Below, piece after piece: positions 4,847-55,984 of a DNA stretch of 64,000 nucleotides. The stretch is from the sequence record MT150133.1; one strand, written 5' to 3'. The notes below the pieces were generated by a model. That model was not told the DNA's origin. It saw only the letters and a list, made by a program, of their open reading frames with translations, and ran no database searches. Each line of letters opens with the position of its first letter. Within the stretch, counting starts at the first letter, position 1. Made by a program: the position numbers and the translations under genes. Origin of the DNA: Enterobacteria phage vB_EcoM_IME540.

Positions 4847-5128
4847 TTAACATTCAGAAGAAGAGGACACCCAACCGCCATTTTCTAGGCTGGTGGTGTA
4901 ATCATGCTGGTTTACAATAGCATACTGGGCTTCACCGTATTCTTCCCAGTGGGCAAGGTCGGCTTTCAAGGCGCCAGGAGAATAATAGTCACCGCCCATA
5001 CCGCGAGCAGGGTATATATTAAAATGAGTCTCATATTTGTTAGCAATTTCCTCGGCACGACGAATAGCTTTATGGATATCATTTACTGCGTCAGCCAGCT
5101 CTTTATTTTTACGGTAATCATTCATCAT
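4847..5128 (-). CDS. small acidic protein, 93 aa, paralog 3 (C-terminus WVSSSSEC)
   Basis: RBS AAGGAAA upstream of ATG 5128. Confidence 0.55.
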   Translation of the reverse strand: MMNDYRKNKELADAVNDIHKAIRRAEEIANKYETHFNIYPARGMGGDYYSPGALKADLAHWEEYGEAQYAIVNQHDYTTSLENGGWVSSSSEC

Positions 5129-7482: not shown

Positions 7483-7746
7483 TTATTTCATATTATTGAA
7501 ATAATTTTCTGCATCAAAATCATTACCATGGTAAACTTTGGTAGACGATTTGGCGTAACCTTCAGCTGAGAACATATTAATCACAACTTTAATTGTATAC
7601 CACTGTCCATCTTCATTACCCATTACTGCATAGGTTTCATACACCGGGTGTTCAGGACCGATAACCTTAATATCGTTAACTGTGGCACCAAATTCTTCCG
7701 GAACGCATTTCATAAAGAAATTAAACACTTCACCATAATTATCCAT
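7483..7746 (-). CDS. hypothetical protein, 87 aa
   Basis: Track ORF begins at a GTG; real start taken as ATG 7746-7744 with RBS AAGGAG. Confidence 0.5.
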   Translation of the reverse strand: MDNYGEVFNFFMKCVPEEFGATVNDIKVIGPEHPVYETYAVMGNEDGQWYTIKVVINMFSAEGYAKSSTKVYHGNDFDAENYFNNMK

Positions 7747-7781
7747 TTTACTCTCCTTCACTCTGTTGTTTTGATAGGTCT

Positions 7782-7810
7782 ATAGTATCATGTTTAAAGG
7801 AGGTGTAAAC
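7782..7810 (-). promoter_or_regulatory. early promoter cassette (-35 GTTTAC, 17 bp, -10 TACTAT)
   Basis: Minus strand GTTTACACCTCCTTTAAACATGATACTATAGACCTATCAAAACAACAGAGTGAAGGAGAGTAAA-ATG. Confidence 0.55.
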
Positions 7811-7833
7811 ATCTTTTTTAAACTTTTAGAAAC

Positions 7834-7861
7834 AAAAAAGGCCCAACCTTTCGGAAGGGCC
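7834..7861 (-). terminator. rho-independent terminator, copy 1 of identical 30-bp element ACAAAAAAGGCCCAACCTTTCGGAAGGGCC
   Basis: Minus strand reads GGCCCTTCCGAAAGGTTGGGCC + TTTTTT directly after the stop of gene 7867-8421. Confidence 0.65.
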
Positions 7862-8447: not shown

Positions 8448-8455
8448 TATTTATA
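8448..8455 (-). promoter_or_regulatory. late promoter TATAAATA for gene 7867-8421
   Basis: Minus strand TTTTTTGTATAAATATGTAGTAAACTAACTTAGGAAATAAT-ATG. Confidence 0.5.
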
Positions 8456-8456
8456 C

Positions 8457-8484
8457 AAAAAAGGCCCAACCTTTCGGAAGGGCC
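8457..8484 (-). terminator. rho-independent terminator, copy 2 of the identical 30-bp element
   Basis: Same hairpin + T-run downstream of the tRNA/ncRNA region. Confidence 0.65.
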
Positions 8485-10903: not shown

Positions 10904-10939
10904 TTTATTCTCCAATCACTCATTTGTTTTGATAGGGCT

Positions 10940-10969
10940 ATAGTACCATCACTAAAGCCCGTTGTAAAC
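10940..10969 (-). promoter_or_regulatory. early promoter cassette (-35 GTTTAC, -10 TACTAT) with inverted repeat GGGCTATAG/CTAAAGCCC
   Basis: Minus strand GTTTACAACGGGCTTTAGTGATGGTACTATAGCCCTATCAAAACAAATGAGTGATTGGAGAATAAA-ATG. Confidence 0.55.
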
Positions 10970-11245: not shown

Positions 11246-11470
11246 TTATTCAGCGCCAGCAGCTTTCAAAAGTTTTTTAAGATTGGCTATGCCGCCAGCA
11301 GAAAACGTGACCTTGCCACCTTTTTCATTGATAGAGCCAGTCAATTTAGCAAGCTTATCACTAGGGACTTTTTTAAAATCAGCCAGTGTGCCATCAAAGG
11401 TTTTTGTAACAATTGGCAGTTCATCTTCATGTCTTTTAGCTTCGGTGATAAATTCTTGATAAGTTTTCAT
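11246..11470 (-). CDS. internal-protein-like, 74 aa, with N-terminal capsid-targeting sequence MKTYQEFITEA
   Basis: Capsid-targeting-type N-terminus; early promoter cassette upstream. Confidence 0.65.
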   Translation of the reverse strand: MKTYQEFITEAKRHEDELPIVTKTFDGTLADFKKVPSDKLAKLTGSINEKGGKVTFSAGGIANLKKLLKAAGAE

Positions 11471-11507
11471 TTTGATTTCCGTTTGGTTAGTTTGTTTTGA
11501 TAGGTCT

Positions 11508-11536
11508 ATAGTATCATGCCTATAGACCTTGTAAAC
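11508..11536 (-). promoter_or_regulatory. early promoter cassette (-35 GTTTAC, 17 bp, -10 TACTAT) with 10-bp inverted repeat AGGTCTATAG/CTATAGACCT
   Basis: Minus strand GTTTACAAGGTCTATAGGCATGATACTATAGACCTATCAAAACAAACTAACCAAACGGAAATCAAA-ATG. Confidence 0.55.
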
Positions 11537-24918: not shown

Positions 24919-24944
24919 CAGTATATCAATAATGAGGCATACCT

Positions 24945-25805
24945 ATGATTAAGCAAACTGGTAAAGAACTAATTGACGTCGGTGAAATTGGTAATGCCAG
25001 CACCGGCGACATTCTTTATGACGGCGGTGTTAAACTGAACACTGACTTAAACAACATCTATAATACTTTTGGCGACCAACGTAAAACTGCTTTAACCGGC
25101 GAATTAACAGGTCAGAAATTACACGCTACAGGCTACTATCAAAAATTTGGTGATACCGACCAAGCAAGTTCAGTTGATTTAGGCTCCTTGGTAGATATCG
25201 ATGCTTCTACCGGTTCTATCGTATTAACCACTGTAAAAGGTGCAGTCGGTGAAGGAATCGAGATTATCAACTCTAATGGAAGTATTTCTTCCACTAATTA
25301 TCTTGAAATCCGTATATTGGATACTTTTGCAAGCCATTCAACTTCGACTTTGCGCATCGTAACACCTTATACACGAGTTCTTTTATGGTGTGTATCGGAT
25401 ACAAACGGCGTTGCGGTATGGGATTATTCAATTGAAAGTATGTTTGGCGATAAACGAGTTCCATTAAATAAGACATATAATATATCTTCTGTCGCTCGTG
25501 ATATCCCGGTGGTTTATTCCGGCCAGTACTCATTGCTCAAACTTTTAGTTACGGCAGTGAATGCTAATGAAACCATTTACAAAGCTTCAGAATATCTTGT
25601 GTTTATCGACAACCAAGCTAAAAAGATTTATTCCACTGAATACGGTGTTATTAAACGTGGACAAACTTCAGATGATGACGAAATTTATTCTCTAGATTTT
25701 AAATTCGATACATCAAACTATATTATCGCGACCGCTTCTTCTGTCAACCCTATGAGGCTTGCAATTAAGGTCGTAGAAACCCAAACTATTGGAGTTCCAG
25801 TATAA
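24945..25805 (+). CDS. 9: baseplate protein gp9 (long tail fiber socket)
   Basis: 286 aa ...LIDVGEIGNASTGDILYDGG..., matches T4 gp9. Confidence 0.9.
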   Translation: MIKQTGKELIDVGEIGNASTGDILYDGGVKLNTDLNNIYNTFGDQRKTALTGELTGQKLHATGYYQKFGDTDQASSVDLGSLVDIDASTGSIVLTTVKGAVGEGIEIINSNGSISSTNYLEIRILDTFASHSTSTLRIVTPYTRVLLWCVSDTNGVAVWDYSIESMFGDKRVPLNKTYNISSVARDIPVVYSGQYSLLKLLVTAVNANETIYKASEYLVFIDNQAKKIYSTEYGVIKRGQTSDDDEIYSLDFKFDTSNYIIATASSVNPMRLAIKVVETQTIGVPV

Positions 25806-33784: not shown

Positions 33785-34647
33785 ATGTTTGGACATTGGT
33801 ATAATAGTTCGCTACGTCGCTATATTGTTTTGATGGGTGATTTATTTTCCCATGTTCAAGTAGCACGTCAAAGAGAAGATACAGGGCTTAAATTTATTAA
33901 AGTTCCTATTACGTATGCTTCTAAAGAAAGATTTATGGCAAATTTGGGTAAATGGACGGCAGTACAGAATATTCCAAATCCTAATATGACAGCTAAAGAA
34001 CGGGCCGAACAAAAAGCTAAAGTGGAAACAGTTCTTCCGCGTATGAACCTCCAAATGGTTGATATGCTTTACAACTCACAATATAAAACAGCCCTTCAAA
34101 ACAGAACACAAATTCAATTTGAGAATGGCGACCCACGTAAGCGTGTCAGCCAATATTCTCCTACTCCGGTTAAAATGATTTTCGAACTGGGTATTTACAC
34201 TAGAACCCAAGATGATATGTTCCAAATTGTAGAACAGATTATGCCTTATTTCCAACCTCACTTCAATACAACTATCACTGAACTCTATACAAACGAAATT
34301 AAATTTGACCGTGATATCCGTATTGTGTTCCAATCTATAGCAATGGATGAACAATTAGAAGGTGATACCACTTCTAGACGTCGCTTAGAGTGGTCTATGA
34401 TGTTTGAGGTTAATGGTTGGTTATATCCTCCTGTGAAGGAAATGGAAGGCGAAATTAAAACCATTTATCTTGATTTCTTTGCCAACTCAAAGGAACTCGC
34501 TCCTGAAGGTAATTTCGAATCGGTTGATAGCGAAGTGGTTCCTAGAGGTGTAGAAGAAAAAGAATGGGACGGTAAGTCCATTCAAACATATTCACAAGAT
34601 ATTCCAGTGCCTGTCGAGCCAGCGCCTCCAGCACCAAGGAGAAACCC

Positions 34648-46665: not shown

Positions 46666-46694
46666 TTTTAATCTCCTCATGTTTTGATAGGTCT

Positions 46695-46724
46695 ATAGTA
46701 ACATGTGAGAATCTTGCTGTAAAC
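46695..46724 (-). promoter_or_regulatory. early promoter cassette (-35 GTTTAC, 18 bp, -10 TACTAT)
   Basis: Minus strand GTTTACAGCAAGATTCTCACATGTTACTATAGACCTATCAAAACATGAGGAGATTAAAA-ATG. Confidence 0.5.
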
Positions 46725-52375: not shown

Positions 52376-53872
52376 ATGCAAATTCAAGTACATTTTGATA
52401 ATTTTAGTCATGTCCGTATTGAATGCGATGAATCTACATTCTACGAACTCAGAGACTATTTTAGCTTTGAAGCTGATGGATATAAATTCAACCCTAAATT
52501 TCGTTATGGCCAATGGGACGGACGTATTCGCCTTCTGGATTACAACCGTAAACTTCCTTATGGATTGGTCCCTCAAATTAAAAAGTTCGCTGAACAATTT
52601 GAATACTCTCTGTGGATTGACCCACGTATTCTTGAACAGGAAGATATTTCTCGTGAAGATTTTGATTCATGGGTAGCTTCTCAAGAAATTTATTCAGGGT
52701 CTACCAAGATTGAGCCTCATTGGTATCAGAATGAAGCCGTATACAACGGCCTGACAAAACGTCGTGCAATTCTGAATTTACCTACATCCGCAGGTAAATC
52801 ATTAATCCAGGCGCTCCTGAGTCGATATTACGTTGAGAACTATGAAGGTAAAATCCTCATCTTAGTTCCTACTACTGCACTTGTCGACCAGATGATTAAT
52901 GACTTCATCGATTATCGATTGTTCCCTAAAGCAGCAATGCTTGGTATTCGTTCAGGTACTGCTCGTGATTCCGATGCAATGATTTATGTTTCAACTTATC
53001 AAACCGCTATCAAGCAACCTAAAGAATGGTTTGCTCAGTTCGGTATGTTTATGAACGACGAATGCCATTTGGCTACAGGTAAATCTATTTCTACTATCAT
53101 CGAAGGCCTAACCAACTGTATGTTTAAATTCGGTTTGTCGGGTTCTTTAAAAGATGGTAAAGCTAATTTAATGCAATATATGGGCTTGTTTGGTGATGTG
53201 TTTAAGCCAGTATCCACCTCCCAATTAATGGAAGAAGGACAGGTTACTGACCTTAAAATCAACAGTATTTTCCTTCGATACCCAGACGAATTCACGGTTA
53301 AAATGAAAGGTAAAGATTACCAATCAGAAATCAAGGTCATTACTAAGGCTACTCGTCGTAATAAATGGGTTGCTAATTTAGCTGTTAAACTCGCTAAGAA
53401 AGAAGAGAACGTATTCCTGATGTTTAAAAACATCGAACACGGTAAAACTCTTTTTGAAATGGTTAAAGAGCAACATAAAGAAGTTTATTACGTATCAGGT
53501 GAAGTTAATACCGAAACGCGTAATGCTCTGAAGGTAATGGCGGAAAATGGTAAGGGTATTATTGTTGTGGCAAGTTATGGTGTGTTCTCTACAGGTATTT
53601 CCGTTAAGAACCTTCACCACGTTGTATTTGCCCATCCAGTAAAATCTAAAATCATTGTACTCCAGACAATTGGTCGTGTACTCCGTAAACATGCCTCTAA
53701 ATCAACAGCACAGGTGTGGGATATCATCGACGACATGGGTGTTAAGCCTAAATCAGCTACGGCTAAAAAGAAATATGTTCATTTGAACTACGCCCTCAAA
53801 CACGCTTTAGAACGTATTCAACGTTATGCTGATGAGAAATTTAATTACGTAATGAAACAGGTGGATTTATGA
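52376..53872 (+). CDS. uvsW: UvsW RNA-DNA / DNA helicase
   Basis: 498 aa; MQIQVHFDNFSHVRIECDESTFYELRDYFSFEADGYKFNP...; Walker A PTSAGKS; matches T4 UvsW. Confidence 0.95.
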   Translation: MQIQVHFDNFSHVRIECDESTFYELRDYFSFEADGYKFNPKFRYGQWDGRIRLLDYNRKLPYGLVPQIKKFAEQFEYSLWIDPRILEQEDISREDFDSWVASQEIYSGSTKIEPHWYQNEAVYNGLTKRRAILNLPTSAGKSLIQALLSRYYVENYEGKILILVPTTALVDQMINDFIDYRLFPKAAMLGIRSGTARDSDAMIYVSTYQTAIKQPKEWFAQFGMFMNDECHLATGKSISTIIEGLTNCMFKFGLSGSLKDGKANLMQYMGLFGDVFKPVSTSQLMEEGQVTDLKINSIFLRYPDEFTVKMKGKDYQSEIKVITKATRRNKWVANLAVKLAKKEENVFLMFKNIEHGKTLFEMVKEQHKEVYYVSGEVNTETRNALKVMAENGKGIIVVASYGVFSTGISVKNLHHVVFAHPVKSKIIVLQTIGRVLRKHASKSTAQVWDIIDDMGVKPKSATAKKKYVHLNYALKHALERIQRYADEKFNYVMKQVDL

Positions 53873-54096
53873 AAACCTTTAAAGAAGTTATTCAAGAAGC
53901 ATCTATTGAAAGCTTCATGGCTAAAATTGGTTCTTGTCAGACTATGGATGGTCTGAAGGAATTGGAAAAGTATTACAAAACTCGTAGTAAGGAAGCCGAA
54001 CTTCGTGATTCGGATGATATTAGCGTGCGTGATGCATTGGCCGGTAAGAGAGCTGAATTGGAGTCGATGGACGACGAGGAAGAGGAAGATTTCTAA
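53869..54096 (+). CDS. uvsW.1: UvsW.1-like small acidic protein
   Basis: 75 aa, ATGA-coupled to uvsW, acidic C-terminus DDEEEEDF. Confidence 0.75.
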   Translation: MKTFKEVIQEASIESFMAKIGSCQTMDGLKELEKYYKTRSKEAELRDSDDISVRDALAGKRAELESMDDEEEEDF

Positions 54097-54098
54097 AC

Positions 54099-54126
54099 AA
54101 AAAAGGCCCAACCTTTCGGAAGGGCC
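54099..54126 (-). terminator. rho-independent terminator, copy 3 of the identical 30-bp element
   Basis: Same sequence as at 7834-7861 and 8457-8484; T-run on the minus strand. Confidence 0.6.
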
Positions 54127-54155
54127 AATAACCATAAATGGCTATACACACTAGA

Positions 54156-54323
54156 CTAAAGTAGTAATTGGGTTTCGTTCAGCTGTTCTTCAGTGTTTTC
54201 CGTAACCGGCAAGCTTTGAACGTAATTATAGCATGAGCCCGGATGAACCGGACCTTTTTCTGTTTCAACAACCAATGCAGCATCGATTGGAGTTTTACAG
54301 ACAACGCAAATCTTATCTGACAT
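54156..54323 (-). CDS. small Cys-containing protein, 55 aa (below the ORF-track size cutoff)
   Basis: Minus ATG 54323 with strong RBS AAGGAGA; translation MSDKICVVCKTPIDAALVVETEKGPVHPGSCYNYVQSLPVTENTEEQLNETQLLL. Confidence 0.5.
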   Translation of the reverse strand: MSDKICVVCKTPIDAALVVETEKGPVHPGSCYNYVQSLPVTENTEEQLNETQLLL

Positions 54324-54448
54324 GATTGTCTCCTTAGTTTAACTTACATACCTATTTATTACTTGCTAAAGCAGCATTAATGAATTCTTGGAGAAGTTTC
54401 ATCTTATCGGCATCTACTTTAATGGGTTTGGTATTTTAGTACGTCTCA

Positions 54449-54883
54449 TTATTTACCCGCCTCAAATTGTCTCATCTCATGCATGGTCTTAAGGTTAAAA
54501 CCACGCGCCTTAATAGCATCAAGTGCTGAACTACAAAAGTCCTGTAATAAAGCCCAATACTGGATTGACGTATCGATTTTAATTACACTAGAATCTGCAG
54601 CCATTACGGTCTTTAATTCAGACTTCTCATACTGGTCCATACAAACCTCATCACCAGGCTCTCCACGTCCCGTGTAGAAATCTAATCGCTTCTTAAGTGA
54701 GGTCTTTTTCTGGATTTCTAATCTCATTATTTCTTTCTTACAATTCGTATACAGTCTTAGCCATTTGCTGTGCAGCAAAACGTTGTTCTGTACTTCATAT
54801 TGTAAACGAGTTCCATCAATCTTTAAATCCTCGTCTAATGCGTCCTGGAATGATTCTAACTTATATTCAATCTCTTTACTCAT
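54449..54883 (-). CDS. uvsY: UvsY recombination mediator
   Basis: Start at ATG 54883 with RBS AGGAAA; ...LQYEVQNNVLLHSKWLRLY...KSELKTVMAADSSVIKIDTSIQYWALLQDFCSSALDAIKARGF matches T4 UvsY. Confidence 0.9.
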   Translation of the reverse strand: MSKEIEYKLESFQDALDEDLKIDGTRLQYEVQNNVLLHSKWLRLYTNCKKEIMRLEIQKKTSLKKRLDFYTGRGEPGDEVCMDQYEKSELKTVMAADSSVIKIDTSIQYWALLQDFCSSALDAIKARGFNLKTMHEMRQFEAGK

Positions 54884-54941
54884 CGCATGTTTCCTGTGTA
54901 ATAACCATAGGACCATTATACACTATTCATTTGAACAGCAA

Positions 54942-55331
54942 TTAACCACTCTGTGAGAGCTGGATTCTAATTTGCTCTAATGTATCCGGGTCATCAACAA
55001 TACTAAACTGTACCGTCACGATAATCGAGTTGTCATCATACACAGGTGTAACGCCTACGGCAAGAGCAGAAATTCTAGGTTCGAAGTTCCGCACAGCGGA
55101 AACTATATTACGCTTAATGGTGTCTGTGATTAATGGAGTAATATTCTCAAACAATTGGTTGCTGATGTCACAACCGAATTCAGGCATAAAAGGGCGCGAA
55201 CCTTTGCGAGTGGTAATAATACCTAACAAGCTATTTTTTACTGCACGAGCCCCTGTAGCTTTAGCAACGTCTCTATCCCAAGACGTTCTCATCTCAGGGT
55301 CTAAATCTGAATACATCTTATTAATATTCAT
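54942..55331 (-). CDS. 25: baseplate wedge protein gp25
   Basis: 129 aa ...LLGIITTRKGSRPFMPEFGCDISNQLFE..., matches T4 gp25. Confidence 0.9.
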   Translation of the reverse strand: MNINKMYSDLDPEMRTSWDRDVAKATGARAVKNSLLGIITTRKGSRPFMPEFGCDISNQLFENITPLITDTIKRNIVSAVRNFEPRISALAVGVTPVYDDNSIIVTVQFSIVDDPDTLEQIRIQLSQSG

Positions 55332-55972: not shown

Positions 55973-55984
55973 TATTTATAAATA
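55973..55984. promoter_or_regulatory. overlapping divergent late promoters TATTTATAAATA (minus box 55973-55980 for gene 26, plus box 55977-55984 for gene 51)
   Basis: Two exact TATAAATA boxes sharing the central TATA. Confidence 0.55.

Follow-up and report, generated by a model that had tools for sequence, protein, structure and literature searches.

Recombination in bacteriophage T4, which employs gp32, UvsY, and UvsX, is the textbook model of mediator-assisted filament assembly; UvsY is the mediator, and gp32 is the analogue of RPA. DSS1, a small and highly acidic partner of BRCA2, is reported to be a DNA mimic that helps to displace RPA. Downstream of uvsY, the T4 genome carries uvsY.-1 and then uvsY.-2 (positions 114496 to 114663). 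In time-course omics tables, T4 uvsY.-2 (Q00778) belongs to the “middle” class by RNA and to the “late” class by protein (PMC9697503). A genome-wide dCas13d CRISPRi-ART screen scored it as “Semi-Fit,” which places it among just five T4 genes with that score whose function is purely unknown, and the effect was validated by single-guide plaque assays; complementation of the knockdown from a plasmid restored plating efficiency and plaque size (PMC11879866). In the same screen, uvsY, uvsX, and uvsW were “Not Fit” (PMC11879866).

The window analyzed here is a 64,000-nucleotide stretch of Enterobacteria phage vB_EcoM_IME540 (MT150133.1) that carries a counterpart of this gene (Table 1). Since uvsY.-2 has long been on the T4 map and has a Pfam family of its own, the gene call itself adds nothing. 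The new elements are the conservation of the putative metal ligands, a treble-clef model of the protein, two motifs in its tail, and its strict linkage to uvsY.

Table 1. Features of the uvsY.-2 locus and of its predicted product (nucleotide positions refer to the window)
Feature	Position	Strand	Description	Basis
uvsY.-2 coding sequence	54156..54323	-	55 aa, 6.0 kDa, pI 4.4	ORF list, Pfam, phrog
uvsY, recombination mediator	54449..54883	-	144 aa; upstream cistron of the same operon	ORF list
Shine-Dalgarno sequence	54329..54335	-	AAGGAGA, 5 nt upstream of ATG	Read from sequence
Candidate late promoter	54353..54360	-	AATAAATA, 7/8 match to T4 late box TATAAATA	Window sequence
Intrinsic terminator hairpin	54105..54126	-	GGCCCTTCC-GAAA-GGTTGGGCC, G+C-rich; U-tract (T6) at 54099-54104	Repeat family D5, RNA fold
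Second hairpin	54128..54145	-	A/U-rich, 7 bp, between stop codon and terminator	RNA fold
Zinc finger, predicted treble clef	residues 1-37		Putative ligands C6, C9, H27, C31	AF2 model and invariant columns
Acidic tail	residues 38-55		P-V-T-E-N (39-43) and L-N-E-T-Q-L-L-L (48-55)	Window protein

Identity of the ORF and evidence for a coding gene

The first-pass annotation of the window had proposed an unlisted 55-amino-acid gene on the minus strand between uvsW.1 and uvsY, and its coordinates and translation agree exactly with the ORF list. The ORF begins with an ATG at 54323 to 54321, ends with a TAG at 54158 to 54156, and encodes MSDKICVVCKTPIDAALVVETEKGPVHPGSCYNYVQSLPVTENTEEQLNETQLLL; it is flanked by uvsW.1 (53869 to 54096, plus strand) and, 125 bp away on its own strand, by uvsY. 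The product matches Pfam family DUF2685 (PF10886) over profile positions 1 to 55 of 55 with 98.6 bits (cutoff, 25 bits; E = 2e-28) and also matches phrog_1043 (E = 5.6e-29). It is 100% identical to UvsY.-2 of phages Bp7 and QL01, and 47 of its 55 residues are identical to those of T4 UvsY.-2 (NP_049797, Q00778). Over the surrounding 1.2 kb, the window shares 99% identity with the Dhakavirus QL01, an Escherichia phage; the window uvsY is 100% identical to the annotated UvsY of vB_EcoM-VR5 (tblastn) and has the same start as in the QL01 annotation. The ORF is almost certainly the Dhakavirus ortholog of T4 uvsY.-2.

The description of the gene as unlisted holds in part. The ORF exists, but as T4 uvsY.-2 it was known already; it is annotated as uvsY.-2 or uvsY.2 in Bp7, JS98, JS10, and IME08, and its unlisted status is a product of the size cutoff in the ORF track that was first read. 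The further suggestion that such a gene is easy to miss in automated annotation mostly failed, as 2 of the 60 records among the tblastn matches listed were annotated yet had no feature at this place, while 4 more had no annotation at all. A separate case is Vibrio phage VH7D (KC131129), a sparse record in which a clear DUF2685 gene (E = 1e-22; about positions 5000 to 5169 of L015) located some 580 bp downstream from uvsY was left unannotated.

The locus resembles that of T4 in the length of the protein (55 amino acids), the spacing of the ribosome binding site, the stem of the terminator, and the place of the gene downstream of uvsY. In contrast to T4, where uvsY.-1 lies between uvsY and uvsY.-2, the window has no uvsY.-1 and has the 125-bp spacer instead. 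In QL01, JS98, and Bp7, the place of T4 uvsY.-1 is occupied by a 32-codon ORF, MRRTKNTKPIKVDADKMKLLQEFINAALASNK, whose ATG overlaps the uvsY stop codon (TAATGA); it has no similarity to uvsY.-1 and is annotated in QL01 only. At the corresponding place in the window (54352 to 54450, minus strand), a 1-nt deletion in an A5 run near 54437 cuts this ORF to 11 codons; the deletion is a genuine frameshift or else an error in sequencing the homopolymer. On the other side of the locus, Bp7 has an HNH homing endonuclease gene (L001, 2952 to 3734) between its annotated uvsW segment and a uvsW.1-like gene, and its uvsW is annotated in two pieces; uvsW is intact in the window (498 amino acids) and is directly followed by uvsW.1.

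An ORF of 55 codons is by itself not significant, as many spurious ORFs of that size occur by chance in the AT-rich window, and the DNA around it is likewise highly conserved among close relatives. Both points would suit a chance ORF or a noncoding region conserved through a terminator, promoter, or RNA element. The gene is nevertheless under strong purifying selection (dN/dS of 0.05 to 0.13, Nei-Gojobori), including in the comparison with T4 uvsY.-2, where dN/dS is 0.09 at a dS of about 1.1 (21 synonymous and 12 nonsynonymous differences). Protein homologs reach down to about 31% identity with conserved length, and a search of 53700 to 55000 against Rfam found no RNA family. The ORF is more than a chance occurrence because of its Pfam match, its presence in 1193 phage records (tblastn; mainly Escherichia, Klebsiella, Shigella, Acinetobacter, and Aeromonas phages), and its dN/dS values. 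The first-pass annotation had looked to translation and to conservation in related phages for a check on the gene, and both bear it out: the records just given and the divergent family members for conservation and, for translation, detection of the T4 ortholog in the proteome time course (PMC9697503) and a protein-level knockdown phenotype that is complemented in trans (PMC11879866). A chance or noncoding origin has thereby already been refuted, and its probability is practically nil; family membership, selection, and the published T4 data support a genuine coding gene.

Translation and transcription signals

The strong ribosome binding site that had been pointed out upstream of the ORF is present as AAGGAGA (Table 1). 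It is identical in QL01, JS98, and Bp7; its T4 counterpart, equally spaced, reads GAGGAGA. A perfect late box, TATAAATA, precedes the start of T4 uvsY.-2 by 22 nt and overlaps the uvsY.-1 stop codon (...gTATAAATAgatataattcagaggagacaatcATG); at the equivalent position, the window has AATAAATA. On the minus strand, no perfect TATAAATA occurs between 54324 and 55972, and the nearest one, at 55973 to 55980, lies upstream of genes 26 and 25. Late transcripts from that box would run through gene 25, uvsY, and uvsY.-2 to the terminator. A MotA box-like TGCTTTA at 54373 to 54367 was considered as a middle promoter and rejected, as JS98 and Bp7 have CGCTTTA and it lacks a good -10 element. A scan for sigma-70 promoters upstream of the uvsY.-2 ORF gave nothing convincing.

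The ORF had been described as ending just before an identical 30-bp terminator, and three identical copies of this element are indeed found in the window, the hairpin of the relevant copy lying 29 nt beyond the end of the ORF. The 30-nt core, ACAAAAAAGGCCCAACCTTTCGGAAGGGCC, occurs at 7832 to 7861, 8455 to 8484, and 54097 to 54126 (repeat family D5). All three copies have an A-run before the hairpin on the plus strand and are oriented for minus-strand transcripts. Since the copy at 54097 to 54126 has its U-tract on the minus strand only, it terminates the uvsY/uvsY.-2 transcript and not that of uvsW.1. The terminator closes the 26-25-uvsY-uvsY.-2 transcription unit, of which uvsY.-2 is the last cistron. 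It is conserved in QL01, JS98, and Bp7; the T4 terminator shares the stem, but its loop is UUUUU, versus GAAA in the window. A simple terminator pattern scan missed the hairpin because of two U-U mismatches in its stem. The two hairpins downstream of the ORF fold with a dG of -20.7 kcal/mol (z = -3.2), and changes in Bp7 fall on both arms of the one at 54128 to 54145.

Elsewhere in the window, a repeat of about 38 to 90 nt containing GTTTTGATAGGTCTATAGTATCA is found next to gene starts (2444 to 2534, 7720 to 7810, 10923 to 10960, 11446 to 11536, and 46678 to 46715; families D2 and D3), where it probably serves several genes as a common promoter or regulatory cassette.

Linkage to uvsY across T4-like phages

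Genomic contexts were collected for 11 divergent family members in metagenome and genome assemblies and for annotated phage loci scanned with the family HMM. The window gene fits the family pattern, with a single domain of about 55 amino acids, a place next to uvsY, and a T4-like (Straboviridae) genome. In all 11 look-ups, as well as in T4, the Dhakaviruses, Maroon, phiAS5, and VH7D, DUF2685 shares the strand of uvsY and is no more than two genes away. The linkage is thus kept in every context examined, about 17 lineages; common ancestry may account for part of this adjacency, as synteny is strong in this phage family. Gene order is not fixed: uvsY comes first in L003/4, L009, L012/13, L017, L025, Maroon, and the T4-like phages, and DUF2685 comes first in L006, L010, L011, L018, L026, L027, and Aeromonas phage phiAS5. 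Where the two genes are directly adjacent, their stop and start codons overlap by 1 to 4 bp in most pairs, which suggests translational coupling. The flanking genes vary and include gp25/26, uvsW, denV, gp23, and genes for Dda-like helicases and Alt-like ADP-ribosyltransferases; in L012, for example, the neighbors are denV and gp23 and not uvsW. Cyanophage S-T4 and Paraglaciecola virus GD1 encode UvsY but showed no DUF2685 gene within 4 kb of it, and a need of UvsY for DUF2685 is therefore not universal.

The cluster often has a third gene, seen in several divergent T4-like phages, that encodes a YqeY/GatB-like domain (PF09424; L005, 531 to 962; L007, 739 to 1167; L010, 625 to 1035; L018, 3360 to 3830); in the phiAS5 cluster, the YqeY-domain gene is annotated as “tRNA amidotransferase.”

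A predicted treble-clef zinc finger

A family profile search of 1.84 billion representative proteins gave 60 clusters, 2 of them apparently spurious, which leaves about 58. Nearly all represent proteins of about 51 to 67 amino acids, and the domain architecture is single-domain throughout, with the sole exception of one N-terminally extended form. This exception, a 126-amino-acid protein with a 72-amino-acid extension (P0029, phrog_26998; L009, 487 to 867), is encoded by a gene that overlaps the uvsY stop codon. The extension matches nothing in Pfam, does not resemble T4 UvsY.-1, and is uninformative as a Rosetta-stone test.

In an alignment of 61 sequences reaching down to 31% identity, C6, C9, G29, C31, and E42 are invariant, and K10, G24, H27, and L53 are conserved in at least 90% of sequences. 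H27 is replaced by Cys only, in P0075 (...MVCQGQC...) and in Citrobacter phage Maroon (...PICGVVC...); a metal ligand would be expected to change in just this way, which supports a metal site. The C-x-x-C pair and further Cys/His that had been noticed in the translation can be sharpened to C6-x2-C9-x17-H27-x3-C31, within a family pattern of C-x2-C-x15-20-(H/C)-x3-C. An AF2 model built with the 61-sequence alignment has a pLDDT of 80 overall and of 82 to 90 over residues 1 to 40. It contains a CxxC knuckle, a β-hairpin at residues 19 to 26, and a helix at residues 30 to 37 whose N terminus gives the last ligand, the arrangement that characterizes a treble clef. On this model, UvsY.-2 is very probably a metal-binding treble clef in which C6 and C9 in the knuckle, H27 at the end of the β-hairpin, and C31 in the first helix turn would hold one metal ion, most likely zinc. 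The earlier suggestion that these residues could bind a metal gains support from the three invariant cysteines, the behavior of H27, and the predicted fold, and we infer binding of zinc.

Searches for relatives outside the family gave little. A sequence search against solved structures returned only noise (E ≥ 0.1), NCBIfam and PADLOC searches with UvsY.-2 had zero matches at E ≤ 10, and a BFVD fold search retrieved uncharacterized family members only. When UvsY.-2 was aligned by hhalign with YacG and L24e sequences, the register paired CxxC with CxxC and H-x3-C with C-x3-C in both cases. The treble clefs of the TRASH, L24e, and MYM types follow C-x2-C-x19-22-C-x3-C, whereas UvsY.-2 has a spacer of 17 and His as the third ligand. 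In addition, L24e is basic and binds rRNA, whereas UvsY.-2 is acidic, and the likeness is structural only. Membership in TRASH or L24e was rejected on the x17 spacing with His, an hhalign probability of 2.4% against L24e, and the absence of a Pfam match.

The acidic C-terminal tail

Every family member is acidic, with a median pI of 4.5 (maximum, 6.25) and a median tail charge of -4, which makes direct binding of nucleic acid unlikely. The tail of about 18 residues carries two conserved motifs, Phi-[STN]-E-[SN] around E42 and a C-terminal L-x-E-[TVI]-[QE]-[LM]-[LI]-[LMI]. Its pLDDT in the AF2 model is 58 to 71, a low confidence consistent with a segment that may fold only on a partner.

The bacterial β-clamp-binding motif is QL[SD]LF or QLxLxL with both hydrophobic anchors. 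The tails of 64 family members were used to build a position-specific matrix, which was run over 736 ORF C termini from the window, T4, and Maroon; UvsY.-2 orthologs scored 20 to 23 bits. The next-best score (8.0 bits) belonged to a 289-amino-acid ORF of the window (24936 to 25802, plus strand) with VVETQTI four residues from its end. A score of 5.6 bits was obtained for a 105-amino-acid stop-to-stop ORF of Maroon (L022, 34176 to 34490, plus strand) with LNETKLQ near its end; the corresponding annotated coding sequence (34203 to 34493) lies between gp47- and gp46-like nuclease-subunit genes. Both matches are probably due to chance.

The tails of several T4 replication and recombination proteins share a general character with that of UvsY.-2, namely, gp43 (...SLDFLFG), gp55 (...SLDFLYEAND), gp33 (...TLDFLL), gp32 (...DLDDLLNDL), and UvsX (...LEQLSDMEEFNE, with the end ...EQLSDMEEFNE). 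UvsY.-2 itself ends in ...EEQLNETQLLL; in Maroon, gp55 ends in TLEMFL and UvsY.-2 ends in EVQMLL. Clamp ligands have been described as “hydrophobic and acidic C-termini” that are attached through flexible linkers (PMC2988020). These resemblances could indicate a replisome “tool-belt” ligand or decoy, with a tail that binds the gp45 clamp or mimics the acidic tail of gp32 or UvsX and so tethers the protein to, or competes at, a hub. Such a role is very unlikely, as gp32, gp33, gp43, gp55, and UvsX all fall outside the top 30 of the 736 C termini in the matrix ranking, and family tails practically never carry the aromatic residue found in the clamp motif L-D-F-L-[FYL] (Phe at position 53 in 1 of 64 tails). 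The β-clamp motif, for its part, would lack its fifth anchor in UvsY.-2, and position 52 has Glu instead of Gln in 19 of the 64 sequences.

Three specific assignments of the tail were rejected. A gp45 clamp ligand ([ST]-L-D-F-L-[FYL]) does not agree with the E-T-Q-L-L-L of UvsY.-2, and the matrix fails to retrieve gp43, gp33, or gp55; the bacterial β-clamp motif does not agree with a chain that ends after QLL(L), with no fifth or sixth anchor; and mimicry of the gp32 tail was unsupported, as the matrix left the T4 and Maroon C termini of gp43, gp33, gp55, gp32, UvsX, gp59, and RNase H all outside its top 30. The UvsY.-2 tail is a motif distinct from known T4 docking peptides.

Possible roles of UvsY.-2

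Our leading reading of UvsY.-2, to which we give a probability of roughly 0.45, is that the small protein acts in the UvsY recombination-mediator pathway, as a protein-binding partner or as a regulator. Probably too acidic to bind nucleic acid, the protein would act as a protein-binding adaptor or regulator. The folded finger would attach to a partner and the tail would enter a groove, either as a peptide ligand or as an acidic decoy resembling single-stranded DNA (ssDNA). The partner would most likely be found within the UvsY/UvsX/gp32 presynaptic-filament machinery, with UvsY as the first candidate. An adaptor or regulator is the most economical interpretation of the acidity, the small putative zinc module, the terminal peptide on a flexible linker, the apparent cotranslation with UvsY, and the late accumulation of the protein. 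The linkage, the tail motifs, the selection, and the fitness effect in T4 are observations; a protein-binding rather than DNA-binding function and a partnership in the UvsY pathway are what we infer. DSS1 offers a functional analogy as another very small acidic protein tied to a recombination mediator, the tie between UvsY.-2 and UvsY being a genomic one. It differs from UvsY.-2 in having no zinc finger, and the two proteins are not homologous. Simple charge complementarity between UvsY.-2 and UvsY is not invoked here, as UvsY is not strongly basic, with a pI of only 6.2 in the window and 7.8 in T4.

The fitness data from T4 constrain the form that a link to UvsY could take. A “Semi-Fit” score for uvsY.-2 against “Not Fit” for uvsY makes it unlikely that UvsY.-2 is a mere positive helper of UvsY; the pattern fits a restraining regulator or an unrelated (e.g., host-directed) function, in a comparison for which guide efficiency differs between genes. 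The UvsXY system makes toxic intermediates when unchecked (PMC3016281). A more specific and rather doubtful form of the regulator reading is that UvsY.-2 is a dedicated fourth presynaptic component beside gp32, UvsY, and UvsX that times or restrains mediator activity, its acidic tail docking on UvsY or acting as a decoy of ssDNA or of the gp32 tail. If this were true, loss of uvsY.-2 would be harmful through toxic intermediates from unregulated UvsX/UvsY, which would account for the stronger phenotype of the uvsY.-2 knockdown relative to the uvsY knockdown.

The same fitness effect, found for uvsY.-2 but not for uvsY, uvsX, or uvsW in one screen, could also arise if UvsY.-2 were a host-directed inhibitor or counterdefense factor whose finger and acidic tail block a host enzyme, its adjacency to uvsY being historical. 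Precedents for such inhibitors are E. coli YacG, which blocks gyrase, and B. subtilis CsfB, which blocks sigma-G. YacG (PDB 4TMA chain I) has a ligand pattern of the same type (C-x2-C-x15-C-x3-C) and an acidic C-terminal tail, and the hhalign register places HPGSC of UvsY.-2 against CSKRC of YacG. The third ligand of YacG is Cys, in contrast to His in UvsY.-2, the tail motifs are unrelated, and YacG is chromosomal and targets GyrB, whereas nothing ties UvsY.-2 to a topoisomerase. Membership in the YacG family (PF03884) was rejected, with an hhalign probability of 2.0%, no Pfam YacG match at E ≤ 10, and His as the third ligand. The authors of the CRISPRi-ART screen proposed that genes of this kind may counter host defenses (PMC11879866). 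Antidefense genes are usually patchy and mobile, whereas DUF2685 is fixed beside uvsY and apparently coupled to it in translation, in both gene orders and in divergent lineages, and UvsY.-2 has no PADLOC match. Its “late” protein class and the T4 late promoter are atypical of host takeover factors, which are mostly early. Conservation of the tail motif in Escherichia, Vibrio, Aeromonas, and Acinetobacter phages fits a host target and a phage target equally. On balance, a host-directed role appears unlikely.

For a role of UvsY.-2 as a partner or regulator in the UvsY pathway, the four putative ligand residues, E42, and the C-terminal L-x-E-T-Q-L-L-L peptide provide handles. T4 recombination is a system well studied in vitro; a small partner or regulator, if real, would change it and could be tested easily.
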